From: Escherichia coli
Lineage (GTDB): Bacteria; Pseudomonadota; Gammaproteobacteria; Enterobacterales; Enterobacteriaceae
Reading direction: 5' to 3' (one strand)
Assembly (NCBI RefSeq): GCF_003018255.1
Contig: NZ_CP027440.1
DNA: 64,000 bases
Made by a program: the position numbers and the translations under genes. How positions within the stretch are numbered: the stretch's first letter is position 1; the number at the start of each line of letters is the position of its first letter. Below are positions 15,989 to 25,646 of the stretch, piece by piece. The notes under the pieces are model-generated. The model did not search any database and had not been told where the DNA came from. It was given only the letters and a program-made list of their open reading frames with translations.

Positions 15989-17077
15989 ATGAACGACAGG
16001 GAAAAGCAGATTCTTAAAATTTTACGGCGTAACCCGCTGATTCAACAGAACGAAATTGCGGATATGCTGCAAATCAGCCGTTCGCGCGTTGCGGCGCATA
16101 TTATGGATTTAATGCGCAAAGGCCGGATTAAAGGCAAAGGTTACATTCTCACCGAGCAGGAATACTGCGTAGTGGTGGGGACAATCAATATGGATATTCG
16201 CGGGATGGCGGATATCCGTTACCCGCAAGCGGCTTCTCATCCCGGTACCATTCATTGCTCGGCAGGCGGCGTTGGACGCAATATCGCCCACAATCTGGCG
16301 CTGTTAGGCCGCGACGTCCATTTGCTTTCAGTGATTGGCGATGACTTTTATGGCGAAATGCTCCTGGAAGAAACGCGCCGCGCCGGCGTGAATGTCTCCG
16401 GCTGCGTTCGTTTACATGGCCAAAGCACATCGACGTATCTGGCAATTGCCAATCGAGACGATCAAACCGTGCTGGCGATTAACGATACCCATCTGCTGGA
16501 TCAGTTGACACCGCAACTACTGAACGGGTCGCGCGATTTACTTCGTCATGCGGGCGTGGTACTTGCTGATTGTAACCTGACAGCCGAGGCGCTGGAATGG
16601 GTCTTTACCCTCGCTGATGAAATCCCGGTGTTTGTCGATACCGTTTCAGAATTCAAAGCGGGCAAAATCAAACACTGGCTGGCGCATATTCACACCCTGA
16701 AACCCACTTTACCGGAGCTGGAAATTTTATGGGGACAGGCGATCACCAGCGATGCTGACCGTAATGCCGCAGTGAATGCGTTGCATCAGCAAGGCGTTCA
16801 GCAACTGTTTGTTTATTTGCCCGATGAGTCAGTTTATTGCAGCGAAAAGGATGGAGAGCAATTTTTGCTGACAGCGCCAGCGCATACGACAGTAGACAGT
16901 TTTGGTGCTGACGATGGTTTTATGGCGGGCCTGGTATATAGCTTTCTGGAGGGAAACAATTTCCGTGACAGCGCCCGTTTTGCGATGGCCTGCGCGGCAA
17001 TTTCACGCGCCAGCGGCAGCTTAAACAACCCTACCCTGTCTGCCGATAACGCGCTTTCATTAGTGCCGATGGTGTAA
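15989..17077 (+). CDS. yeiI: Putative PfkB-family carbohydrate/nucleoside kinase with N-terminal HTH domain
   Basis: 362 aa. N-terminal winged-helix-like segment followed by a PfkB kinase core (GGVGRNIAHNLALLG) paralogous to PsuK. Starts 3 nt after the nfo stop. Confidence 0.85.
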   Translation: MNDREKQILKILRRNPLIQQNEIADMLQISRSRVAAHIMDLMRKGRIKGKGYILTEQEYCVVVGTINMDIRGMADIRYPQAASHPGTIHCSAGGVGRNIAHNLALLGRDVHLLSVIGDDFYGEMLLEETRRAGVNVSGCVRLHGQSTSTYLAIANRDDQTVLAINDTHLLDQLTPQLLNGSRDLLRHAGVVLADCNLTAEALEWVFTLADEIPVFVDTVSEFKAGKIKHWLAHIHTLKPTLPELEILWGQAITSDADRNAAVNALHQQGVQQLFVYLPDESVYCSEKDGEQFLLTAPAHTTVDSFGADDGFMAGLVYSFLEGNNFRDSARFAMACAAISRASGSLNNPTLSADNALSLVPMV

Positions 17078-17084
17078 CAATGTT

Positions 17085-17118
17085 GCCGGATTCGACGCTT
17101 GACTACATCTTATCCGGC
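17085..17118. repeat. REP-like palindrome (GCCGGA ... ATCCGGC) immediately 3' of nupX
   Basis: Inverted GCCGGAT cores between convergent yeiI and nupX. Confidence 0.5.
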
Positions 17119-17132
17119 TCATAACTCGCGCA

Positions 17133-18383
17133 CTACGCTAAGCCAATAAAGAATCCTGCAATGGTTGCACTCATCAGGTTAGAAAGTGTCGCCGCCGCCA
17201 GCGCGCGTAAACCAAGCTGGGCGATTTCCGGTGCACGGTGTGGCGCAACCGCAGAAAACGCCCCCACCACCACCCCGATAGAACCAAAGTTAGCGAAACC
17301 GCACAACGCGAAGGAAATAATCGCCACGGTTTTAGCATCCAGAGTGCCAGCCGTTTGCAGATAGGGTGAGAAATTGAGGTAAGCGACAAATTCATTTATT
17401 GCCAGTTTCTGTCCAATCAAACTCCCGGCAAGATTCGCATCACTCCAGTCAACACCCATTACCCACGCCAGTGGGGCCAGCAGGTAACCTAAAATGGACT
17501 CCAGCGAGGCATGTTCAAAGCCAAACCAGCCGCCAACGCCGCCGATAATACCGTTAATTAACGCAATGATGGCGACAAATGCCATCACTACTGTCGCCAC
17601 ACCTGCGGCGATTTTCAGCCCGGTCATTGCCCCTGTCGCAGCGGCTTCAATAATGCTTTTTGGCGGTGTTTCGGTGAAAGAGAGGTTATTAAAGGAAACC
17701 TGCGAAGATTCTGTTGCCGGGCTTAACAGGCGGGCAAACAAGATCCCGCCGGGGATCGCCATTAACGATGCCGCCAGCAGATATTCCACAGGCACGCCCA
17801 GTGCGGCGTAACCAATCATTGTCGAACCAGCAATCGAGGCCATCCCGCTACAAATCGCTGTAAATAATTCATTGCGATTCAGACGATTGATAAAGGGTTT
17901 GACGATTGCCGGAATTTCGTTTTGCCCGAGGAAAATGGTAGTGACCGCGACGAATGACTCGATCTTGCTGATATTCAATGCTTTCTGGAAGATACCGCCG
18001 AGAATGCGAATTAAGATCCCCATCACACCGATGTAGTAGAGAATACTCACCAGTGCTGTAACGAAGATAATTGCCGGTAATACCCTGAAACCAAAGATAA
18101 ATCCTGCGCCATCAAATAAGGTATCCATTTTTGGTCCGACCAGAGAACCAAAGATAAATGCGCTACCTGCATCGCTGTACGCCATCACTTTATGCACGCC
18201 AAAAGCGACTTTTTCTGCGACCCAACGCCCTGGTGGTAACCAAAGCATAATGCCGCCAATCACGACCTGTAACACTAACGCCGCGCCAACGGTACGCAGG
18301 CTGATCTTCTTCTTGTTTACTGACAGCAAAAACGCAATTGCCAGCAATACCACCATTCCCAGAACACTTCTCATGACATCCAT
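17133..18383 (-). CDS. nupX: NupC-family nucleoside permease
   Basis: 416 aa, paralog of PsuT in this window. Confidence 0.9.
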   Translation of the reverse strand: MDVMRSVLGMVVLLAIAFLLSVNKKKISLRTVGAALVLQVVIGGIMLWLPPGRWVAEKVAFGVHKVMAYSDAGSAFIFGSLVGPKMDTLFDGAGFIFGFRVLPAIIFVTALVSILYYIGVMGILIRILGGIFQKALNISKIESFVAVTTIFLGQNEIPAIVKPFINRLNRNELFTAICSGMASIAGSTMIGYAALGVPVEYLLAASLMAIPGGILFARLLSPATESSQVSFNNLSFTETPPKSIIEAAATGAMTGLKIAAGVATVVMAFVAIIALINGIIGGVGGWFGFEHASLESILGYLLAPLAWVMGVDWSDANLAGSLIGQKLAINEFVAYLNFSPYLQTAGTLDAKTVAIISFALCGFANFGSIGVVVGAFSAVAPHRAPEIAQLGLRALAAATLSNLMSATIAGFFIGLA

Positions 18384-18408
18384 AGTTATTATCTCTTCAT
18401 GTCATTTT

Positions 18409-18436
18409 GGGCGACGGCTTTCTGCCCATCAGAAAT
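18409..18436 (-). other. Conserved 28-nt leader motif, copy 1 (GGGCGACGGCTTTCTGCCCATCAGAAAT; contains TTTCTG-N5-CAGAAA)
   Basis: Near-identical sequence recurs upstream of psuT at 21637-21664. Confidence 0.4.
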
Positions 18437-18482
18437 AGCCGGGCCTGCATCTTGCGATACTGTCCCGGCTTGTTATCAACAC

Positions 18483-19424
18483 TTAATGGGTTTTGATGTA
18501 GCCGCGCACGCACTCTTCGACTAATCCCCAGAACCAGTCGGTATCAATAGTGATGCCGACTTTGGTATTGGCGGGCTTGCCAAGAACGCCCAGCTCGTCG
18601 CAGACCGTACGCCCGTAGCAAGGGCCGCTGTTAACGTCCACTTCGACGTACATCTCCTGGGTTTTAATGCCATCAGGGTTAATCAGATAACCGATGCAGG
18701 TGGCGTCATGCACCGGGCCGCCAGCCAGGCCGTAGTTTTCGAACTGCGTTTTTAGAGTGAAATTCATGATGTCGCTGAACAGCTCTCCGGCGGGGCCGCC
18801 TACCCTTTCCATCCGAGCAATCACGTCCGGGGTGCAAACAGTCTGGTTGGTGAGATCGAGGCCCATCATCACCAACGGAACGCCGGAGGTGAACACCACG
18901 CGTGCGGCTTCCGGGTCAGCAAAGATGTTGAACTCGGCAGATGGGGTGAAGTTGCCAGTACCGTAAGCGCCGCCCATCAGCACAATTTCACGGATTTTCG
19001 GCAGGATCGCGGGTTGCATACGCATTGCCACCGCGATATTTGAAAGTGGGCCAACCGGCACCAGAGTGATATCGCCATCGCTTGCCATCAGGGTATCGAT
19101 GATATATTTCACCGCATGAGTGCTTTCTGCCTGGCGGGTCAGCGGCTCGAATACCGGGCCATCCAGTCCGGTTTCACCGTGAATATTATCGGCAACGATT
19201 TGTTGACGCATAATGGGCTGTGGCATCCCCGCATAAACCGGAACATTAATCTCCAGTTTCTGGCAAACATTCAGGCCATTAATTAATGTTTTATCAAGCG
19301 TCTGATTACCCGCCACAATGGTGATACCTAATAAATCTATTGCCGGATGTTTCGCTGCCATCATTATGGCAATAGCATCATCATGACCCGGATCACAATC
19401 CAGAATAATTTTTCTCTTTTCCAT
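18483..19424 (-). CDS. rihB: Pyrimidine-specific ribonucleoside hydrolase
   Basis: 313 aa, N-terminal DxDxxxDD nucleoside hydrolase motif ([13 protein letters not shown]). Confidence 0.93.
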
Positions 19425-19592
19425 TGTTTATTTCCTCTGTTTCCAGTTGCGTTATTTTTTCTACAGCAAAGAAAATTCGACCGGGCCGATGATTGAATCT
19501 TAACAACAGCGTAAGTATGCTAAATATGAGAAATCTCATAGCGGATAAACATCGTGAAAGAAATCCACAATAATGACCTTAAGCAGCAATTG

Positions 19593-20252
19593 ATGAGTGA
19601 ATCTGCGTTTAAGGATTGCTTTTCAACGGATGTTTCAGCCGATACGCGGCTGTTTCATTTTTTAGCGCGTGACTACATTGTGCAGGAAGGGCAACAGCCG
19701 TCATGGCTGTTTTATCTGACGCGAGGCCGTGCCAGGCTTTACGCCACGCTTGCTAATGGTCGCGTGTCGCTGATCGATTTCTTTGCCGCTCCCTGTTTTA
19801 TTGGCGAGATTGAGTTAATCGACAAAGACCATGAACCGCGTGCGGTGCAGGCTATTGAAGAGTGTTGGTGCCTTGCGCTCCCTATGAAACATTACCGCCC
19901 GCTGTTATTAAACGACACGCTATTTTTACGAAAACTCTGCGTCACCTTAAGTCATAAAAATTATCGTAATATTGTTTCTTTAACTCAGAATCAATCATTT
20001 CCGTTAGTGAATCGCCTGGCAGCTTTTATATTACTCTCGCAGGAAGGTGATCTTTATCACGAAAAGCATACGCAAGCGGCAGAGTATTTAGGTGTTTCTT
20101 ATCGACATCTTTTATATGTTCTCGCGCAATTCATTCACGACGGTTTATTAATTAAAAGCAAGAAAGGGTATCTCATTAAAAACAGAAAGCAGTTGTCAGG
20201 ACTGGCACTGGAGATGGACCCGGAAAATAAATTCTCAGGGATGATGCAGTAA
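19593..20252 (+). CDS. yeiL: CRP/FNR-family transcriptional regulator
   Basis: Start trimmed to the ATG giving 219 aa (MSESAF...). cNMP-binding-like fold plus C-terminal HTH. Confidence 0.85.
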
Positions 20253-20275
20253 AAATTATTTGCAATAGAGCGATT

Positions 20276-20311
20276 GCCGGATGTGACGCTTAATAAGCGC
20301 GTACATCCGGC
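20276..20311. repeat. REP-like palindrome (GCCGGATGT ... ACATCCGGC) immediately 3' of psuT
   Basis: 9-bp inverted arms between convergent yeiL and psuT. Confidence 0.55.
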
Positions 20312-20319
20312 AATGACAC

Positions 20320-21570
20320 TCAAGCTAAACCAATAAAGAACCCGGCAATGGTCGCGCTCATCAGGTTGGAAAGCGTTGCTGCTGCCAGCGCCCGTAAACC
20401 AAGCTGGGCGATTTCCGGTGCGCGTTTTGGCGAAATAGCCGAAAATGCCCCAACGACAACACCGATAGAACCAAAGTTAGCAAAACCACAAAGCGCAAAG
20501 GAGATAATCGCAATGGTTTTCACTTCCAGCGTGCCGCCCGTTTGCAGGTATGGGGAGAAACTCAGGTAAGCGACGAATTCGTTAATCGCCAGTTTCTGCC
20601 CAATCAGGCTACCCGCAAGATTGGCATCACTCCAGTCCACACCCATGATCCACGCCAGCGGTGCCAGCACATAGCCAAAAATACTTTCCAGAGAGGCATT
20701 GGCGAAACCAAACCAGCCGCCAATTCCGCCGATAATGCCGTTGATCAGCGCAATAATTGCGACAAACGCCATTACAACCGTCGCCACACCAGCGGCGATT
20801 TTCAGCCCGGTCATCGCACCGCTCGCCGCCGCTTCGATAAAGCTTTTTGGCGGCGTTTCGCTGAACGACAGATTTTCAAATGTCACCTGCGAAGGCTCGG
20901 TGGCTGGGCTAAGAATACGTGCAAACAAAATACCACCAGGGATCGCCATCAGCGATGCCGCTAACAGGTAGTCAATTGGTACGCCCATTCCGGCATAACC
21001 AATCATCATCGAACCAGCAATGGACGCCATCCCGCTACAAATTGCGGTAAACAACTCGTTGCGATTCATGCGATCGATAAACGGTTTAACGATCGCCGGG
21101 ATCTCATTTTGCCCGAGGAAAATAGTGGTAACCGCAACAAAAGATTCGATTTTGCTGATGTTGAGGGCTTTCTGGAAAATGCTGCCAAGGATGCGAATCA
21201 GCAGCCCCATCACGCCAATGTAGTACAGCAGACTGATGAGCGCAGTGACGAAGATAATCGCCGGAAGTACGCGAAAGGCGAAGATAAAACCCGCACCGTC
21301 AAAGAGGACATCCATTTTCGGCCCGACCAGCGAACCAAAAATGAAGGCGCTACCGGCATCACTGTAAGACATCACTTTATGAACGCCTAATGCCGCCTGT
21401 TCTACCGCCCATTTTCCTGGTGGAAAATAGAGCATGATTCCGCCAATGGCGATTTGTAGCAGCAACGCGGCTCCAACCGTGCGCAAACTGATGCTCTTTT
21501 TATTCACTGACAACAGAAATGCTATTGCCAGTAACACCACCATCCCCACAACACTTCTCATTATATCCAT
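20320..21570 (-). CDS. psuT: NupC-family transporter, putative pseudouridine permease
   Basis: 416 aa, full-length paralog of NupX, last gene of psuK-psuG-psuT. Confidence 0.9.
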   Translation of the reverse strand: MDIMRSVVGMVVLLAIAFLLSVNKKSISLRTVGAALLLQIAIGGIMLYFPPGKWAVEQAALGVHKVMSYSDAGSAFIFGSLVGPKMDVLFDGAGFIFAFRVLPAIIFVTALISLLYYIGVMGLLIRILGSIFQKALNISKIESFVAVTTIFLGQNEIPAIVKPFIDRMNRNELFTAICSGMASIAGSMMIGYAGMGVPIDYLLAASLMAIPGGILFARILSPATEPSQVTFENLSFSETPPKSFIEAAASGAMTGLKIAAGVATVVMAFVAIIALINGIIGGIGGWFGFANASLESIFGYVLAPLAWIMGVDWSDANLAGSLIGQKLAINEFVAYLSFSPYLQTGGTLEVKTIAIISFALCGFANFGSIGVVVGAFSAISPKRAPEIAQLGLRALAAATLSNLMSATIAGFFIGLA

Positions 21571-21636
21571 ATTGATTTTCCCTTCATGCCAGTAAACCCG
21601 GCGTCAGCGCCAGGTTTTGGTATGCTTGATGAGTAC

Positions 21637-21664
21637 GGGCGACGGCTTTCTGCCCGTCAGAAAT
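21637..21664 (-). other. Conserved 28-nt leader motif, copy 2 (GGGCGACGGCTTTCTGCCCGTCAGAAAT)
   Basis: Abuts the psuG stop codon and lies upstream of psuT. One mismatch to copy 1. Confidence 0.4.
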
Positions 21665-22602
21665 TAACCCGCGAGACGCTGGTATTCTTTGGCTATTTCA
21701 CTCGCCAGGATGGCGTTGTTGAACACCAGCTGGATGTTGGATTTCAGGCTGTCACCGCCGGTCAACTCAGCAACGCGCGCCAGCAGGAATGGCGTACTTT
21801 CTTTACCAATAACACCCTGCGCTTCAGCTTCAGCTACCGCCTGATCGATCGCCGCATTGATAGTGTGTTCCGGCATAGCAAACTGTTCCGGAATCGGGTT
21901 CGCTACCACGAGGCCACCGTTCAGCCCGCTTTGCCATTTCACCGCCATTGCACGGGCAATTTCGCTGGCGCTGTCGAGACGAATGCTCACGTCAAACGGG
22001 CTGGTGCGGCAGAAAAACGCAGGCAGCGCTTTGGTCTGATAGCCAATTAGCGGTACACCGAAAGTTTCTAAATATTCGGTAGTTAAGCCTAAATCGAGAA
22101 TAGATTTCGCCCCGGCACAAACGACGGTGACATTGGTGTGCGCCAGTTCTTGCAAATCGGCAGAAATATCGAAGGTATGTTCCGCCCCGCGATGCACACC
22201 ACCAATTCCCCCGGTGGCAAATACTTTAATTCCGGCAAGCGCCGCAATAATCATCGTTGAAGCAACGGTGGTTGCACCATTTTTTCCGGCGGCAACAACA
22301 AAAGGTAAATCGCGACGACTAACTTTGGTCACGTTATGCCCTTCACGACCCAGCAATTCAATTTCTTCTTTGCTTAAACCCACTTTCATCACGCCGCCAA
22401 TAATGGCGATAGTGGCAGGTACAGCGCCCTGTTTACGAATAGTTTCTTCAACTTCAATTGCGGTCTGGGCATTTTGTGGGAACGGCATCCCGTGAGAAAT
22501 AATGGTCGATTCCAGCGCCACAACCGGTTTTTTGTTTTTTAAAGCGTCCTGCACTTCCGGGGAAATTTGTAATAATTCAGGGGAAATTTTTAATTCAGAC
22601 AT
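21664..22602 (-). CDS. psuG: Pseudouridine-5'-phosphate glycosidase
   Basis: 312 aa, matches YeiN/PsuG. Confidence 0.92.
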   Translation of the reverse strand: MSELKISPELLQISPEVQDALKNKKPVVALESTIISHGMPFPQNAQTAIEVEETIRKQGAVPATIAIIGGVMKVGLSKEEIELLGREGHNVTKVSRRDLPFVVAAGKNGATTVASTMIIAALAGIKVFATGGIGGVHRGAEHTFDISADLQELAHTNVTVVCAGAKSILDLGLTTEYLETFGVPLIGYQTKALPAFFCRTSPFDVSIRLDSASEIARAMAVKWQSGLNGGLVVANPIPEQFAMPEHTINAAIDQAVAEAEAQGVIGKESTPFLLARVAELTGGDSLKSNIQLVFNNAILASEIAKEYQRLAG

Positions 22603-23531
22603 TCTGCGTTCTCCACTAACGATATAACGTTGGCAATCGATAAATCGGGGTTATTGGTGTATTCACAGGAGAGCGCCATTGACGAACATCCCTGTGCGAA
22701 ACGAACAGATTCGGCAAACGGCATTCCGTCTACCCAACACGAAGCAAGTCCCGCCATCATGGCATCGCCCGCTCCGGTAACATTAATGACATTGGTTTTG
22801 ATCGGCGCAGACCAACCACTTTCACCGCTGATATCACTGTAATAAACGCCGTCGCCGCCCATGCTCAATACCAGTCGGTTCAGGCCATGTTGATGGAACC
22901 AGGCAGCAACTTTTGCCACATCTTCACGCCCTGACAAAGCAATCCCACTCAGGGTTTCCGCTTCAAGGCGGTTTGGCTTGAGAGTGTGGATTTGATTTAG
23001 ACGGTCGCGCACTTTGACACATTTCCACGCGGAAACAGGATCGACAAATACGGGTACGTTGGCGGCATTATCCAGAATCCATGCCAGTGCCTCTTCACTG
23101 ATATTACAGTCCGCGACAATGACCTTTGCCCTCTGAATAAATTCACCGTGCTGTGCGAGATATTCAGCTGTAATAGCGTTGCTAATATTCATGTCATTTA
23201 TAGCAACCAGCATTTCACCGGTATTATCGAGTAATGATAAATAGCTCGACGTATTTTCTCCCGGCACAATCAGGCATTTATCGACATAAACACCAGATTG
23301 ATTGGTTTGCGTTAGCAGCGATTGACCATAAAAATCACTGCCTACGGCGCTCAGTAGCCAGGCTTTATTCCCCAGCAACGCCAGGTTTTGTGCAATATTG
23401 CGCCCTACTCCACCAGGCGTAAACTTTATTTTACCTGGATTTGAATCCGCATAATTTAATGATTCATGTGAATATCCGGCGACATCAATATTCGCCGAAC
23501 CTATAATTACGACATAATCCTTTTCGCGCAT
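22590..23531 (-). CDS. psuK: Pseudouridine kinase (PfkB family)
   Basis: 313 aa, PfkB motifs GGVGRNIAQNLALLG and GAGDAMMAG. Overlaps psuG by 13 nt. Confidence 0.92.
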   Translation of the reverse strand: MREKDYVVIIGSANIDVAGYSHESLNYADSNPGKIKFTPGGVGRNIAQNLALLGNKAWLLSAVGSDFYGQSLLTQTNQSGVYVDKCLIVPGENTSSYLSLLDNTGEMLVAINDMNISNAITAEYLAQHGEFIQRAKVIVADCNISEEALAWILDNAANVPVFVDPVSAWKCVKVRDRLNQIHTLKPNRLEAETLSGIALSGREDVAKVAAWFHQHGLNRLVLSMGGDGVYYSDISGESGWSAPIKTNVINVTGAGDAMMAGLASCWVDGMPFAESVRFAQGCSSMALSCEYTNNPDLSIANVISLVENAECLN

Positions 23532-23598
23532 AGCACGTCCTCTGGTAAAAAATTACCAACCCTGTCAATCCACAAGAATATAGATACTGCAAAGACGG

Positions 23599-23634
23599 TT
23601 TAAACATGTGTTCATATTTAAACATGTGCTCATA
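23599..23634. repeat. Perfect tandem 18-bp direct repeat (TTTAAACATGTG[T/C]TCATA x2) upstream of psuK
   Basis: Two adjacent units differing at one position, 68-103 bp upstream of the psuK ATG. A partial third copy follows. Confidence 0.6.
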
Positions 23635-23771
23635 GTATGCATGTTTTACGTAAAGTAAATTACCGCCAGAGATGCAAAATGGGCAGATTTGAGCAGGCTC
23701 ACAAAACGCGATTAAATGCCTGAATTATAAAAACGGGGAATTTGTGACGGAATGCACAGAACAGGAACACT

Positions 23772-23797
23772 AAAAAAGGGCAGAAATTAATCTGCCC
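23772..23797 (-). terminator. Rho-independent terminator (GGGCAGA-ttaatt-TCTGCCC plus U-run on minus strand) distal to fruA
   Basis: Stem-loop followed by six U on the minus-strand transcript. Confidence 0.6.
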
Positions 23798-23913
23798 TTG
23801 AGGAAATAACCTTAGTGTTTGATGAAAGTTTCAGGTTTCCACTAAAAGATAAAACCATTTAAATTCATAAAATTACATTCACAAACCGGTCATTCTCTTT
23901 GCGCGCATCAAAT

Positions 23914-23944
23914 GTTCCAGGGCAGGAAATTTCTGCCCTGGAAC
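23914..23944 (-). terminator. 12-bp perfect stem-loop immediately 3' of fruA (GTTCCAGGGCAG ... CTGCCCTGGAAC)
   Basis: Near-perfect 31-nt palindrome 11 nt past the fruA stop. U-tract is weak. Confidence 0.45.
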
Positions 23945-23954
23945 ACACCTTTTA

Positions 23955-25646
23955 TTACGCTGCTTTTGCTACTGCGTCCACTTCCGGACGTTTCAGGAAG
24001 GCATAGGCCAGACCCGCCACCAGCGTACCGGCAATAATGGCTACCAGGTAACCCAGTACCGGCGTAATAGCGCCAGGGATCAGCAGAACAAACAGACCAC
24101 CGTGCGGTGCCATCAGTTTCGCACCAATCGCCATTGAGATTGCGCCAGTCAGCGCCCCACCAACGATACAACACGGCAGCACACGCATCGGATCACGAGC
24201 AGCAAACGGAATTGCACCTTCCGAAATAAAGCACAGACCAAGAACCAGAGCGGCTTTGCCACCTTCCTGCTGCGCTTTGTCGAATTTGCGACGCGCCACC
24301 ATTGTTGCCAGACCCATTGCCAGCGGTGGCACCATACCTGCCGCCATAATCGCCGCCATCGGGCCATAGGTTTGAGTACTCAGCAGACCCACACCGAATG
24401 CGTACGCTGCTTTATTTACCGGACCGCCCATGTCAGTACACATCATGCCACCGAGGATCGCCCCCAGCAGAACCGCATTCGCAGTCCCCATGGTCTGCAG
24501 CCAGTGAGTCAACCCTTCGAGAATGCCAGCAACCGGTTTACCGATCAGGTAGATCATCGCCAGACCGACCACCAGACTGGAAATTAGCGGAATGATCAGG
24601 ATCGGTTTCAGCGCCTCCATACTCTGTGGCAGTTTCAGTTGCGTACTGATTAACTTCGCAATGTAACCAGCCAGGAAGCCCGCAATAATACCCCCAATGA
24701 AGCCAGAACCGGTGCTGACCGCCAGCATACCCCCAATCAGACCCGGCGTGAGACCCGGACGATCGGCAATGGAGAAGGCAATGTAACCTGCCAGTACCGG
24801 CACCATCAGCGCAAAGGCTGAACCACCACCAATCTGCATCAGCGCCGCTGCCAACGTACCCGGCTCTTTAAACGCTTCGATACCAAAAGCAAAAGAAAGC
24901 GCGATACACAGACCACCTGCAACGACCATCGGCAGCATGTAAGAGACGCCCGTCAGCAAGTGACGGTAAGCGCCTGCACCCTCTTTCTTACCTTCAGTGG
25001 TCGCTGTTTGAGCTTTGCCCGCCGGTTCATACGGCGTTGCTTCAGCAACCGCTTTATCCAGTTCCTGCGCGGTTTTCTTCAGCGCCAGACCGGTAGAGGT
25101 GCGATACATCGGTTTACCAGCAAATTTCGCCAGATCCACTTCGATATCTGCCGCCACAATCACCAGATCCGCTGCGGCTACTTCTTCAGGGGTGATCGCA
25201 TTACCCGCGCCAACAGAACCACGGGTTTCAACTTTCACCCACCAGCCACGTTTTTTCGCTTCGGTTTCAATGGCTTCAGCCGCCATAAATGTGTGTGCTA
25301 CGCCAGTCGGGCAAGCTGTCACCGCAACTACGCGTTTCGGACCGCTGGTGGCAACTGGTGCTGTCGCAGCGACCGGTGCAGTGTAAGGTTTCGCATGGCC
25401 TTTGGCTTCACTCAGGAACAGCTCAGGGTGCGCAACTGCCCGGGAAATATCGCCCAGCCAGACATTTTTACCGTTCAGCGCGCTGTCGTTCGGGATGGAA
25501 TCACCGAGAACAATCGCCATTTCAGCGTCGTTCGGATTGTCGATGATTTCCAGTTTTGCTTTTCGCGCCGCCGCGCCCAGCAGGGTCTTCGCCATATAGG
25601 CGCGTGCCTGACCGAGATTAGCGTCAATAATCAGCAGCGTTTTCAT
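23955..25646 (-). CDS. fruA: Fructose PTS enzyme IIB'BC
   Basis: 563 aa, matches E. coli FruA. Confidence 0.95.
   Translation of the reverse strand: MKTLLIIDANLGQARAYMAKTLLGAAARKAKLEIIDNPNDAEMAIVLGDSIPNDSALNGKNVWLGDISRAVAHPELFLSEAKGHAKPYTAPVAATAPVATSGPKRVVAVTACPTGVAHTFMAAEAIETEAKKRGWWVKVETRGSVGAGNAITPEEVAAADLVIVAADIEVDLAKFAGKPMYRTSTGLALKKTAQELDKAVAEATPYEPAGKAQTATTEGKKEGAGAYRHLLTGVSYMLPMVVAGGLCIALSFAFGIEAFKEPGTLAAALMQIGGGSAFALMVPVLAGYIAFSIADRPGLTPGLIGGMLAVSTGSGFIGGIIAGFLAGYIAKLISTQLKLPQSMEALKPILIIPLISSLVVGLAMIYLIGKPVAGILEGLTHWLQTMGTANAVLLGAILGGMMCTDMGGPVNKAAYAFGVGLLSTQTYGPMAAIMAAGMVPPLAMGLATMVARRKFDKAQQEGGKAALVLGLCFISEGAIPFAARDPMRVLPCCIVGGALTGAISMAIGAKLMAPHGGLFVLLIPGAITPVLGYLVAIIAGTLVAGLAYAFLKRPEVDAVAKAA

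Follow-up and report, generated by a model that had tools for sequence, protein, structure and literature searches.

Escherichia coli yeiL as the probable regulator half of a divergent yeiL–rihB unit with one predicted operator

Introduction

Sites of the CRP/FNR family are palindromic, with a TGA/TCA core placed 4.5 bp from the dyad, and in FNR of Escherichia coli the site overlaps the transcription start of fnr itself, just as the box that we predict for YeiL lies over the predicted yeiL start. The FNR operator (TTGAT-N4-ATCAA) and the predicted YeiL operator (ATGAG-N4-CTCAT) are both 14 bp long with a 5-N4-5 geometry and the same placement of TGA/TCA, but the flanking bases of the half-sites differ. 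The classical class II site of FNR is located near −41.5/−42.5, as is the predicted YeiL site. The two proteins have a two-domain fold in common; however, FNR is an oxygen sensor whose N-terminal cysteine cluster, joined by one β-roll cysteine, ligates a [4Fe-4S] cluster, and this N-terminal cluster is missing in YeiL, in which C81, C104 and C106 are in the β-roll and C129 is in the long helix, and a manual alignment places the ETxSR recognition helix of FNR against SYRHLL in YeiL. FNR is a global regulator, whereas YeiL appears to be a local, one-site regulator across the window (the whole 64-kb stretch of DNA analysed here) and 80 related loci. CRP of E. coli also shares the β-roll with its FIGE motif and the C-terminal HTH with YeiL, and the TGA core of its site is at the same distance from the dyad, but the CRP site is 16 bp long (5-N6-5), and the arginine of the cAMP-binding pair R82/S83 is not conserved in Enterococcus YeiL (manual alignment).

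The FLP proteins of Lactobacillus and Lactococcus, reportedly described by Gostick et al. in 1998 and 1999, are said to contain redox-active cysteines without the FNR N-terminal cluster and to recognize a variant FNR-type palindrome. As CRP/FNR-family proteins from Bacillota without that cluster they resemble YeiL, although the box differs. In arrangement, there is a likeness to the autorepressing divergons of the LysR and AraC types, where the regulator stands back to back with its catabolic target and one operator serves both promoters, as we propose for yeiL and rihB; those regulators belong to other protein families, however, and the predicted promoters of yeiL and rihB physically overlap. 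The bgl system, an ancient, H-NS-silenced and 'cryptic' catabolic island, pairs foreign, AT-rich DNA with a target gene that stays silent under laboratory conditions, as do yeiL and rihB (PMC2646131, PMC2898832). In contrast to bgl, only yeiL is AT-rich in its cassette while rihB and nupX are not, and no mobility genes are annotated with the cassette.

YeiL is one of the five Fe–S regulators listed for E. coli, as is FNR (PMC7671543), and YeiL proteins form a separate group F with about 20% similarity to FLP, FNR and FixK (PMC3590769). A 2022 count still placed YeiL with those E. coli transcription factors whose function is unknown (PMC9308461). During the transition from exponential to stationary phase in O157:H7, yeiL increases and yeiJ (nupX) decreases (PMC2241611). 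The rihB gene is physiologically silent in E. coli (PMC2898832), and a 2023 review of the Rih hydrolases mentions no rihB regulator (PMC10526354).

Identity and fold of YeiL

The window is part of the E. coli chromosome, and a 1.1-kb yeiL query taken from it is 99.8% identical to strain JNE23-011. In the open-reading-frame list and the RefSeq annotation, yeiL occupies 19554–20252 on the plus strand and encodes a CRP/FNR-family regulator, annotated as an activator in K-12. The K-12 annotation uses an older ATG start at 19593, which gives a protein of 219 residues. The GTG at 19554 (232 residues) is the likelier start, because conservation of the N-terminal sequence MKEIxN..LKQQLI extends as far as Enterococcus, and residue 1 is where the alignment to the NCBIfam YeiL model begins.

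The protein is composed of a sensor β-roll (roughly residues 32–110), a dimerisation helix (122–148) and an HTH (172–195) with the nearly invariant SYRHLL recognition helix. Pfam PF00027 (cNMP_binding) matches residues 35–119 with E = 4e-14 and 52.8 bits against a cutoff of 27.5, PF13545 (HTH_Crp_2) passes barely with 27.6 bits against 27, and a PDB profile search matched CRP at about 1e-6. The AlphaFold model (pLDDT 92.3, pTM 0.86) shows a two-domain fold with a long dimerisation helix, helices at 172–179 and 183–195, and a β wing at 199–208. Its top Foldseek matches are MtbCRP, GlxR, Vfr, CAP, FNR and NtcA, with E values from 1e-13 to 1e-11 and TM scores of 0.55–0.64. YeiL is thus a member of the CRP/FNR superfamily by its β-roll, its winged HTH and its overall fold.

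Within the superfamily, the YeiL subfamily model NF007707 scores 420.5 bits against residues 1–226 of the 232-residue form (cutoff 180), and reaches 332 in Enterococcus, 341 in Hungatella and 290 in a Lysinibacillus paralogue. By comparison, FNR is about 15% identical to YeiL, and the NCBIfam FNR model gives no match to the window protein and 25 bits to a YeiL paralogue (cutoff 228); the NCBIfam CRP model gives 25.7 bits to YeiL (cutoff 266). By these scores, and by its cysteines and the unconserved arginine noted above, YeiL is neither FNR proper nor CRP proper. The cysteines C81, C104, C106 and C129 are nearly invariant in alignments of 15 and 78 homologues, and Y183, R184, H185 and L187 of the recognition helix are invariant across the 78. 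Cyclic AMP was considered as the YeiL ligand and rejected on residue conservation.

The yeiL–rihB unit and its palindrome

On the minus strand next to yeiL lies rihB (18483–19424; Pfam IU_nuc_hydro), which encodes a pyrimidine ribonucleoside hydrolase and is the presumed YeiL target; nupX (17133–18383, minus strand), a nucleoside transporter gene of the CNT family, is downstream of it. The sequence-only reading had described yeiL as an orphan between duplicated modules. The first half of this description is contradicted by comparison: among 52 loci, the window included, that combine a RihB neighbour of YeiL with available upstream sequence, the RihB orthologue is divergently upstream in 52/52. 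These loci span Enterobacterales, Bacillota and one Fusobacteriota genome, and the adjoining RihB is 69–99% identical in every one (86% in Hungatella hathewayi). As for the duplication, it is borne out for nupX and psuT, whose proteins are 87–88% identical, and fails for rihB and psuG, which have unrelated folds; yeiI and psuK are about 39% identical. The nupX gene is present in most enterobacterial yeiL cassettes and absent from the Bacillota ones. We regard as probable the explanation, taken as a whole, in which yeiL and rihB form a conserved pair of divergent genes, with yeiL supplying the regulator.

Between the two genes lies a palindrome, TATGAGAAATCTCATA at 19525–19540 (consensus TATGAGAwwTCTCAyA), which is the predicted YeiL operator. 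Its 14-bp core, ATGAG-N4-CTCAT, occupies 19526–19539 with the dyad at 19532.5, and its 5-N4-5 geometry places TGA/TCA as in the FNR box. The 64-kb window contains a single copy of ATGAGAnnTCTCAT, at 19526–19539, and a search tolerating two mismatches added no other. The core TGAG-N4-CTCA is present in 50/52 rihB-linked spacers, with one mismatch in the remaining two, and also upstream of 24/28 YeiL paralogues that lack rihB; there the divergent partner is an MFS nucleoside-symporter-like protein or a methyltransferase, and the box is kept. The search for the YeiL box, RTGAGAWWTCTCAY, covered the 64-kb window and 0.9 Mb of related loci, and in the 80 loci (913,590 bases) each of the 74 strict 14-mers precedes a yeiL homologue by no more than 420 bp. 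We infer that YeiL binds the palindrome at 19525–19540.

Other searches were silent on this element. A repeat search with a 10-bp minimum length did not report it, which we attribute to its 6-bp arms falling under the minimum. Rfam, run on 17000–24500 at E ≤ 1, returned chance-level matches only; the leader hairpins, the box and the psuK repeats were all without a match. A search of the literature, as distinct from the contents of RegulonDB and RegPrecise, gave nothing relevant on a YeiL box or on yeiL–rihB regulation.

Predicted promoters and proposed mechanism

The predicted yeiL promoter spans 19493–19521 on the plus strand, with a −35 hexamer TTGAAT at 19493–19498, a 17-nt spacer and a −10 hexamer TATGCT at 19516–19521. 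The predicted start near 19528 would place the box at about +4.5. Relative to the box, these hexamers are fixed across phyla as TTGAAT/TTGCAT followed by TATACT/TATGCT/TACACT. On the minus strand, the predicted rihB −10 hexamer at 19497–19502 is 23 nt from the box and puts the box centre near −42.5, the position of a class II activator. Escherichia has TAAGAT here, several other enterics have TATGAT, and 20 Bacillota loci have TATAAT; by manual count, a TAnnnT hexamer stands exactly 23 nt from the box in 44/50 loci and is 1 nt off in most of the others. The two predicted promoters overlap, the yeiL −35 and the rihB −10 having 2 nt in common, and the 23-nt spacing could be a by-product of this overlap. 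The predicted yeiL and rihB promoters of E. coli are weak, and neither was called by a simple consensus scan, in which the yeiL promoter matched 8/12 positions (manual count) against a threshold of 9. The scan called instead TAAACA-17-AATAAT at 19546–19574, inside the long yeiL reading frame; this promoter-like site could serve the short 219-residue form. A separate observation is that TTGAATCTTAACAA (19493–19506), which lies in the predicted yeiL promoter, is also FNR-site-like.

In the mechanism that we propose, a YeiL dimer with its four conserved cysteines would bind the single palindrome described above. Centred some 42 bp 5′ of the predicted rihB start, the bound dimer would act on the weak rihB–nupX promoter as a class II activator of the CRP/FNR kind. 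It would at the same time sit over the predicted yeiL start, whose promoter overlaps that of rihB back to back, so that binding would switch transcription from yeiL to rihB. The degenerate predicted −10 (TAAGAT) and the proposed activator-dependent design may be the reason why rihB is silent in E. coli. Control of rihB by YeiL through one palindrome is the most likely reading of the comparative sequence data, from which we also infer which way regulation runs, where the promoters lie and what signal YeiL senses. The comparative data yield a precise prediction, namely that YeiL binds TATGAGAAATCTCATA and activates rihB–nupX. The K-12 annotation calls YeiL an activator, and positive autoregulation of yeiL was reportedly described by Anjum, Green and Guest (2000), which is at odds with a YeiL dimer occluding the yeiL promoter, as predicted here.

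A wider reading, which we hold tentatively and put somewhat short of even, is that the YeiL family may constitute a cross-phylum Cys4/Fe–S-dependent promoter switch, turning its own gene off and a divergent nucleoside-salvage gene on. The salvage gene would be rihB in the orthologues, and the symporter-like protein or the methyltransferase in the paralogues. The unit would have moved from gut Clostridia into Enterobacterales and recruited a psuT duplicate with its leader hairpin. If true, YeiL would for the first time have an operator, a target gene and a role in physiology assigned to it.

Origin of the cassette

The inserted nupX–rihB–yeiL cassette (17078–20319, about 3.2 kb) is located between yeiI and psuT, and both of its junction spacers, 17078–17132 and 20253–20319, contain REP-like GCCGGAT...ATCCGGC elements. 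The loci of Klebsiella oxytoca and Citrobacter koseri have fruBKA–psuKGT followed by yeiI–nfo–yeiH on the other strand, with psuT directly adjoining yeiI; nupX, rihB and yeiL are missing from this syntenic site, which therefore represents the empty site, and in C. koseri a REP array is found there. In the Salmonella enterica contig psuT adjoins yeiI too, in a different surrounding context. The cassette lies between yeiI and psuT in the Escherichia, C. amalonaticus, Phytobacter and Entomohabitans lineages, and at another chromosomal site in Hafnia. No integrase or transposase is present in the window annotation.

The phylogenetic distribution of yeiL, a check proposed along with the sequence-only reading, proved to be patchy. 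A survey of 100,044 species genomes gave 181 confirmed YeiL hits, of which the best 80 comprise 21 scattered Enterobacterales, with the rest from Bacillota plus one Sebaldella. All trees were built by neighbour joining. Those of YeiL and RihB are congruent and place the Enterobacterales inside gut Clostridia. With the two proteins concatenated, bootstrap support is 98 for enterobacterial monophyly, 97 for Enterobacterales with Hungatella, and 92 for the joining of these with Lachnospiraceae/Oscillospiraceae sequences, while the tree of YeiL alone has moderate support (77 and 63). Rooting with the rihB-less paralogues places the root in Bacillota. The acquisition appears to be old, because the cassette occupies one and the same site in all sampled Escherichia lineages, the yeiL dS of 0.19–0.5 is neighbour-like, and the enterobacterial YeiL proteins have diverged to 60–77% identity. 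On this phylogenetic evidence, Clostridia-like gut Bacillota are the most likely source from which Enterobacterales gained the yeiL–rihB unit in an ancient transfer; its travelling companion in enterics is nupX. Horizontal origin is supported by synteny and phylogeny, not by composition, and the unit concerned is the whole nupX–rihB–yeiL cassette. This provides a clean case of a regulator, its putative operator and its presumed target moving jointly between phyla.

Base composition and selection

The sequence-only reading had judged yeiL by eye to be AT-rich, with long A/T runs in its 3′ half, and calculation bears out both points. The GC content is 43.5% compared with 51.6% for the window (0.435 for 19554–20252 and 0.439 for 19593–20252, against 0.516), and the gene is the lowest or second lowest of the 54 window genes for GC and CAI. 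The other 53 genes have a mean GC of 0.525 (s.d. 0.030), which gives yeiL a z value of −2.9; only lpxT is equally low. Codon usage likewise departs from the window average: GC3 (0.45) is the third lowest of the 54 genes, CAI (0.228, calculated with hand-entered Sharp–Li weights) is the second lowest, and the distance from the pooled codon usage of the window is the fourth highest. The deviation is uneven along the gene, with a GC of 0.496 in the 5′ half and 0.374 (37.4%) in the 3′ half. Only 0.35% of 350-bp windows are as AT-rich as the 3′ half, and these are otherwise mostly intergenic DNA. The 3′ half contains 28.6 A/T runs of at least six per kb, compared with 11.5 per kb for the 5′ half, and the longest run is TTTATTAATTAAAA at 20144. 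Within the cassette yeiL alone is atypical, since rihB (0.522) and nupX (0.503) are inside the window range, and the insert as a whole shows no atypical composition.

We separated the deficit into its components. Of the nine points of yeiL, amino-acid composition accounts for −4.5 and synonymous codon choice for −4.6; the corresponding values for the 3′ half are −6.8 and −8.0. The codon component is the same in psuK, lpxT and mepS (−0.045 to −0.051); the synonymous AT bias of yeiL thus resembles that of these genes and is concentrated in the 3′ half. GC2 is about 0.34 in the YeiL family in every host. The cause of the AT-richness is ambiguous, being half amino-acid composition and half codon choice. 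By itself, the AT-richness of a known and weakly expressed regulator gene is an ordinary finding, and composition alone cannot tell why it arose.

At the level of the protein, yeiL is under purifying selection. Its dN/dS against four Escherichia lineages and C. amalonaticus is 0.03–0.07, in the range of its neighbours, and the 16 nucleotide differences from K-12 result in one amino-acid change. A match to yeiL is found in 5416/5426 complete E. coli genomes. Hypervariability within the species was considered and rejected, as the gene is 97.7% identical to K-12 compared with 96.2–98.5% for its neighbours.

Discussion

Relaxed selection or horizontal acquisition had been offered as the reason for the AT-richness. 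The latter has support for the cassette as a whole, as described above; the former is refuted. A gene decaying by drift towards an AT-biased mutational equilibrium would be expected to have a low CAI and GC3, as yeiL does; its function is still counted as unknown (PMC9308461), and it is occasionally disrupted, by an IS1 insertion in strain 23CRST022 and by a deletion in TUM1881. Yet the dN/dS values and the single amino-acid change from K-12 are those of a constrained gene, the region is near-universal (matched over at least 80% of its length in 5352/5426 genomes), and the protein, its four cysteines and its putative operator are conserved across phyla, so that decay is scarcely credible; the AT-richness is no evidence of it. 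The other possibility is an unameliorated trace of a low-GC donor, which H-NS silencing may maintain while also keeping rihB silent. The cassette is indeed an insertion of foreign phylogenetic origin, and yeiL averages 6.4 GC points under its flanks in 21 Enterobacterales loci, whereas in 30 Bacillota and other hosts it equals them (0.473 versus 0.470). Synonymous AT bias in the 3′ half is likewise commoner in Enterobacterales (17/21 loci) than in Bacillota (9/30), rihB is silent in E. coli (PMC2898832), and acquired AT-rich genes are typically H-NS targets, as discussed for bgl (PMC2646131). However, the acquisition is old and mutational amelioration should have acted already, the amino-acid half of the deficit is found in every host, and psuK, which is ancestral at the site, has an equal codon component, as do lpxT and mepS. 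Donor composition does not explain the low GC, because the closest Bacillota relatives are not AT-rich (yeiL GC is 0.487 in Hungatella and 0.530 in Copromonas), and rihB, which came in with yeiL, has the GC of the host. We therefore largely reject a low-GC Firmicute as the source of the AT-richness, and the combined donor and H-NS explanation is unlikely.

Rather than a YeiL operator, the palindrome could in principle be bound by some other protein, or act as RNA within the yeiL 5′ leader. It does lie inside the predicted transcribed leader, 13–19 nt 5′ of the start codon in most loci, and RegulonDB is said to list a single YeiL site (PMC9308461). Against this, the box tracks YeiL-family genes in Proteobacteria, at least five Bacillota families and Fusobacteriota, where the yeiL gene itself is the only other constant feature, and the recognition helix is invariant in parallel with it. 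Moreover, arms of 6+6 with a 2-nt centre cannot form a hairpin, while in its symmetry, and in having TGA/TCA 4.5 bp off the dyad, the box fits CRP/FNR-family sites. We consider such an alternative role improbable. Still less probable is the earlier proposal that an orphan yeiL, situated between duplicated nucleoside modules, controls both of them through the leader motif (18409 and 21637) and the psuK repeats (23599). Its attraction is positional: yeiL does lie between the two modules, nupX and psuT are close paralogues with a common leader motif, and the first psuK repeat opens with ATGAG, one YeiL half-site. However, no YeiL box with up to two mismatches is present at 18409, 21637 or 23599, and the leader motif and the repeats upstream of psuK are both kept in the S. 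enterica, K. oxytoca and C. koseri loci, which have no yeiL and, as examined, no YeiL box. In addition, yeiL adjoins no psu genes in most enterics and in all Bacillota, and the leader motif lies inside operons with arms that read, by eye, TTTCTG-N5-CAGAAA, an odd spacer unfit for CRP/FNR dimers. Control of rihB by YeiL through the single palindrome at 19525–19540 remains the reading that we prefer.

The two other motifs need a different explanation. Across 24 distinct sequences the leader motif shows compensatory changes, one pair being T:A in 12 and C:G in 11, and it behaves as a covarying RNA-type hairpin in transporter leaders. The ATGAG of the first psuK repeat is best seen as chance, since it is unconserved (ATGAA in Citrobacter) and has no partner half-site. 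The psuK repeats, as putative operators, track yeiI and not yeiL. YeiI is a wHTH–PfkB protein whose gene is next to psuT in the S. enterica, K. oxytoca and C. koseri loci, and by position it would be a better candidate than YeiL for the psuK operators.

The yeiL locus and its product

The window runs from preA to napA on the E. coli chromosome, and a 1.1-kb query over yeiL is 99.8% identical to strain JNE23-011. Between yeiI (15989–17077, plus strand) and fruA (23955–25646, minus strand) lie nupX (17133–18383), rihB (18483–19424), psuT (20320–21570), psuG (21664–22602) and psuK (22590–23531), all on the minus strand, with yeiL (19554–20252) on the plus strand between rihB and psuT. Neither yeiL nor its family is new. 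Its product carries the Pfam domains cNMP_binding and HTH_Crp_2 and scores 420 bits with the NCBIfam model NF007707 ('transcriptional regulator YeiL'; cutoff 180). Sequence similarity to solved structures is remote (about 1e-6 for CRP); the AlphaFold model (pLDDT 92.3) shows a complete CRP/FNR fold, with MtbCRP, GlxR, Vfr, CAP, FNR and NtcA as the best structural matches at 14–21% identity. The sequence-only reading started the gene at 19593, the ATG of K-12 (219 aa), and the RefSeq start in this lineage is a GTG at 19554 (232 aa). Because the 13 extra N-terminal residues are kept in the alignment as far away as Enterococcus, and the alignment to the NCBIfam YeiL model begins at residue 1 of the 232-aa form, this form is the likelier product and the K-12 annotation is probably 13 codons short.

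Four cysteines (C81, C104, C106 and C129) are nearly invariant among 78 YeiL homologues and are arranged otherwise than in FNR. Published accounts list YeiL as one of five E. coli Fe–S transcription factors (PMC7671543), as an unstable protein (PMC12974527), as an Lrp target (PMC2374795) and as iron-induced (PMC9308461).

Pairing of yeiL with rihB

Among the matches listed, YeiL homologues are scarce in Proteobacteria and numerous in Bacillota. The proteobacterial hosts are Escherichia, Citrobacter amalonaticus, Buttiauxella, Phytobacter, Salmonella enterica subsp. arizonae, Klebsiella spallanzanii, Hafnia, Pantoea, Ewingella, Cedecea and a few others. In Bacillota the identity is 65% for Hungatella hathewayi, 58–60% for Enterococcus and about 50% for Lactobacillaceae, and homologues also occur in Lachnospiraceae, Erysipelotrichaceae, Cohnella and Peribacillus, as well as in one Sebaldella of the Fusobacteriota. 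yeiL had been described as an orphan regulator, a description that does not hold: in all 52 loci with an RihB neighbour and upstream DNA present (window included), the RihB orthologue is divergent to YeiL and usually lies 100–130 bp upstream. These RihB proteins share 69–99% identity with E. coli RihB (86% in Hungatella). The gene after rihB varies, being nupX in most enterics, a PfkB kinase with a Bmp/ABC nucleoside uptake system in Enterococcus and a distant CNT transporter in Lactobacillaceae. psuTGK adjoins yeiL only in Escherichia, C. amalonaticus, Phytobacter and Entomohabitans among the loci compared.

The predicted YeiL operator

All rihB-linked spacers share the palindrome tATGAGAwwTCTCAya. 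Of the 52, 50 carry the strict core TGAG-N4-CTCA and the remaining two have it with one mismatch; the core positions are all invariant, and the surrounding spacer has diverged. In the window the box, with its flanks, is the perfect 7+2+7 palindrome TATGAGAAATCTCATA at 19525–19540, and the 14-mer at 19526–19539 is the single occurrence in 64 kb even with up to two mismatches allowed. Across 913,590 bases in 80 loci (the best 80 of 181 confirmed matches), all 74 strict 14-mers lie at most 420 bp upstream of a yeiL homologue, with none elsewhere. Among 28 more distant YeiL paralogues without rihB, 24 also have the box upstream; the divergent partner of these paralogues is an MFS protein like nucleoside:H+ symporters or a SAM-dependent methyltransferase. 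An RNA hairpin formed from the box is ruled out by its 2-nt centre.

The box has a 5-N4-5 design with TGA/TCA 4.5 bp from the dyad. The FNR box (TTGAT-N4-ATCAA) has this geometry, and the CRP site likewise has its TGA core at the same position relative to the dyad. The recognition-helix residues Tyr183, Arg184, His185 and Leu187 are invariant in the 78 YeiL homologues, just as the box is in the spacers. We infer from this sequence conservation that the palindrome is the YeiL operator.

The box is set in a conserved promoter arrangement. The predicted yeiL −35 element (TTGAAT, 19493–19498, plus strand) lies 17 nt from the predicted −10 element (TATGCT, 19516–19521, plus strand), which ends 4 nt before the box and would place the latter at about +4.5 of yeiL. 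Across phyla, the equivalent hexamers (TTGAAT or TTGCAT; TATACT, TACACT or TATGAT) keep their place. On the minus strand, the predicted rihB −10 element (19497–19502) lies exactly 23 nt from the box; its sequence is TATAAT in 20 Bacillota loci and TATGAT in six enterics, and all Escherichia loci have TAAGAT. A TAnnnT hexamer occurs at this distance in 44 of 50 loci by manual count. If the hexamer is the rihB −10 element, the box centre would lie near −42.5 of rihB, the class II position from which FNR and CRP activate. The predicted yeiL and rihB promoters stand back to back and overlap, so that a YeiL dimer bound at the box could close the yeiL promoter and at the same time bring RNA polymerase to rihB.

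Several observations agree with this switch. In E. coli, rihB is reported to be silent under physiological conditions (PMC2898832), which fits the TAAGAT element of this species, the most degenerate of the set, and in O157:H7 entering stationary phase yeiL goes up and yeiJ (nupX) goes down (PMC2241611). Other points call for caution. The K-12 annotation lists YeiL as an activator. Anjum et al. (2000) reportedly described positive autoregulation of yeiL. A consensus promoter scan did not call the E. coli yeiL and rihB promoters, which match at 8 of 12 positions by manual count, below the threshold of 9; its own call was a promoter-like site at 19546–19574. Every mechanistic step past conservation is our inference.

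Two spacers are enlarged. The rihB-to-box distance, usually about 70–108 nt, is 223 nt in S. enterica arizonae (L017) and 352 nt in Furfurilactobacillus rossiae (L042); the extra DNA lies between the box/promoter block and rihB, and the box and yeiL-proximal spacer are intact. The rihB leaders of ten Lactobacillaceae loci (L034, L036, L038, L041, L043, L044, L047, L048, L053 and L055) contain a cre-like (CcpA) element, TGTAAGCCCTTAC, between the predicted rihB promoter and the start codon, which suggests catabolite repression of rihB in lactobacilli.

Neighbouring motifs

YeiL had also been proposed as the regulator of the motifs at 18409, 21637 and 23599, a proposal at odds with their persistence in loci without yeiL. 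The leader motif (18406–18430 before nupX and 21634–21658 before psuT, minus strand) has a 6-bp stem and an 11-nt loop of conserved sequence, with the consensus (A/G)(T/C)GGGC-AGnnnGCnGTC-GCCC(A/G)(T/C). Among 24 distinct sequences from 29 leaders (loci L008–L029 and L088–L090) the stem covaries: at one pair T:A occurs 12 times and C:G 11 times, at a second A:T occurs 15 times and G:C 4 times, and the Hafnia leader has a compensated G:C to A:T change. The motif lies inside operons, in the rihB–nupX and psuG–psuT gaps, and is present in the retrieved Salmonella, Klebsiella and C. koseri loci, all of which lack yeiL. It behaves as an RNA-type hairpin of CNT transporter leaders and not as a YeiL site, perhaps with a regulatory or processing role at the RNA level; an Rfam search returned no match for it.

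The psuK-upstream repeats are two AACA(C/T)ATGTT-type operators (23599–23633, minus strand), adjoined by a conserved CRP-like TGTGA-N6-TCA site (23688–23703, minus strand). Escherichia has the two copies in direct orientation, and Citrobacter, Phytobacter and Klebsiella have them inverted; together with the CRP-like site they are conserved in these genera and in Salmonella, including loci without yeiL. YeiI combines a winged HTH (HTH_24) with a PfkB kinase domain and is about 39% identical to PsuK. Its gene is convergent to psuT and conserved there in Klebsiella, C. koseri and Salmonella, and in Yersinia, Serratia, Photorhabdus and Pasteurellaceae the pseudouridine kinase orthologue is itself an HTH–PfkB protein. 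On these grounds YeiI appears a better candidate than YeiL for the psuK operators, and a possible kinase-regulator for the psu operon; we regard this as a lead and not a result. In the fruA–psuK gap, two terminator-like hairpins follow fruA in series (about 23917–23941 and 23772–23798, minus strand) with the same GGGCAGA...TCTGCCC arms; about 110 nt of AT-rich DNA separates them, and the second carries a T-run.

Origin of the nupX–rihB–yeiL cassette

In K. oxytoca and C. koseri, fruBKA-psuK-psuG-psuT is followed by yeiI-nfo-yeiH-yeiE on the opposite strand, and psuT abuts yeiI. The same junction occurs on a Salmonella enterica contig with different surroundings. E. coli thus carries nupX–rihB–yeiL as an insertion of about 3.2 kb (about 17078–20319). 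In Hafnia the trio occupies an unrelated locus. REP-like GCCGGAT...ATCCGGC palindromes occur in both junction spacers (17078–17132 and 20253–20319), and the empty psuT–yeiI site of C. koseri (L090, 10203–10575) holds a long tandem REP array.

Neighbour joining gives congruent trees for YeiL and RihB. In the concatenated tree, bootstrap values (of 100) are 98 for Enterobacterales as a monophyletic group, 97 for Enterobacterales with Hungatella and 92 when Lachnospiraceae/Oscillospiraceae sequences are added; the YeiL tree, with rihB-less paralogues as outgroup, is rooted in Bacillota. The simplest reading of these trees is that a regulator–operator–target unit moved from Clostridia-like Bacillota to an enterobacterial ancestor, and that nupX would have been recruited later as a copy of psuT, with which it shares 87–88% protein identity (dS about 1.2) and the leader. 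The acquisition is old, since all sampled Escherichia lineages carry the cassette at one and the same site and its dS is like that of its neighbours. The earlier suggestion of horizontal acquisition therefore stands on synteny and phylogeny, with the whole cassette as the unit, and not on composition. Neither the predicted operator, nor rihB as its target, nor an origin across phyla turned up in the literature searched; all three are directly testable.

Base composition of yeiL and selection

The visual impression that yeiL is AT-rich proved right on computation. Its GC content is 0.435 (0.439 over 19593–20252) against 0.516 for the window and a mean of 0.525 (sd 0.030) for the other 53 genes (z = −2.9); only lpxT is equally low. 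GC3 (0.45) is the third lowest of 54 genes, CAI (0.228 with Sharp–Li weights, indicative only) the second lowest, and the codon-usage distance to the pooled window the fourth highest. The deficit is concentrated in the 3′ half, with a GC content of 0.374 against 0.496 in the 5′ half and long A/T runs about 2.5 times denser; just 0.35% of 350-bp windows are as low and, apart from the yeiL 3′ half itself, they are mostly intergenic. The 3′ half (19903–20252) shows a synonymous AT bias (GC3 0.39 versus 0.52 in the 5′ half). It also contains GGTGATCTTTATCACG at 20046–20061, a match to the intragenic CRP site found by Footprint-seq at K-12 coordinate 2255813 (preprint PMC12871828).

Composition alone does not settle the cause. 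Recoding the protein with window-average synonymous usage divides the 9-point deficit evenly between amino-acid composition (−4.5 points) and codon choice (−4.6); the corresponding values in the 3′ half are −6.8 and −8.0. GC2 is low in every host (about 0.34), and this part is intrinsic to the protein. yeiL lies on average 6.4 GC points under its flanks in 21 Enterobacterales loci and equals them in Bacillota (0.473 versus 0.470), and the 3′ half is the lower one in 17 of 21 Enterobacterales and 9 of 30 Bacillota loci. A less likely but still viable view is that amelioration is incomplete or that selection connected with H-NS acts on the gene. Among Bacillota, the closest relatives are not rich in AT (Hungatella 0.487, Copromonas 0.530), rihB, co-acquired with yeiL, has host GC, and the codon component takes the same value in lpxT, mepS and psuK, the last being ancestral at the site. 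For these reasons, and because GC2 is low everywhere, we favour intrinsic composition plus the AT-leaning synonymous usage found in weakly expressed genes.

Relaxed selection, the other explanation first offered, is refuted by a Nei–Gojobori dN/dS of 0.03–0.07 against four other Escherichia lineages and C. amalonaticus and by a single residue change (L24S) among 16 of 699 nucleotides differing from K-12. The neighbours give about 0.02 (rihB), 0.005–0.04 (nupX), 0.05–0.10 (yeiI) and 0.07–0.09 (psuK), and the 97.7% identity of yeiL to K-12 is typical of them (96.2% to 98.5%). Of 5426 complete E. coli genomes, 5416 have a match to the 1.1-kb query of yeiL with flanks, and 5352 have one over at least 80% of its length; disruptions of yeiL are rare among them. 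In strain 23CRST022 the gene is split by IS1 (NZ_AP045781.1 and NZ_CP128979.1 are genomes with a disrupted yeiL region), and in strain TUM1881 the match is confined to the psuT end of the query, so that yeiL is missing.
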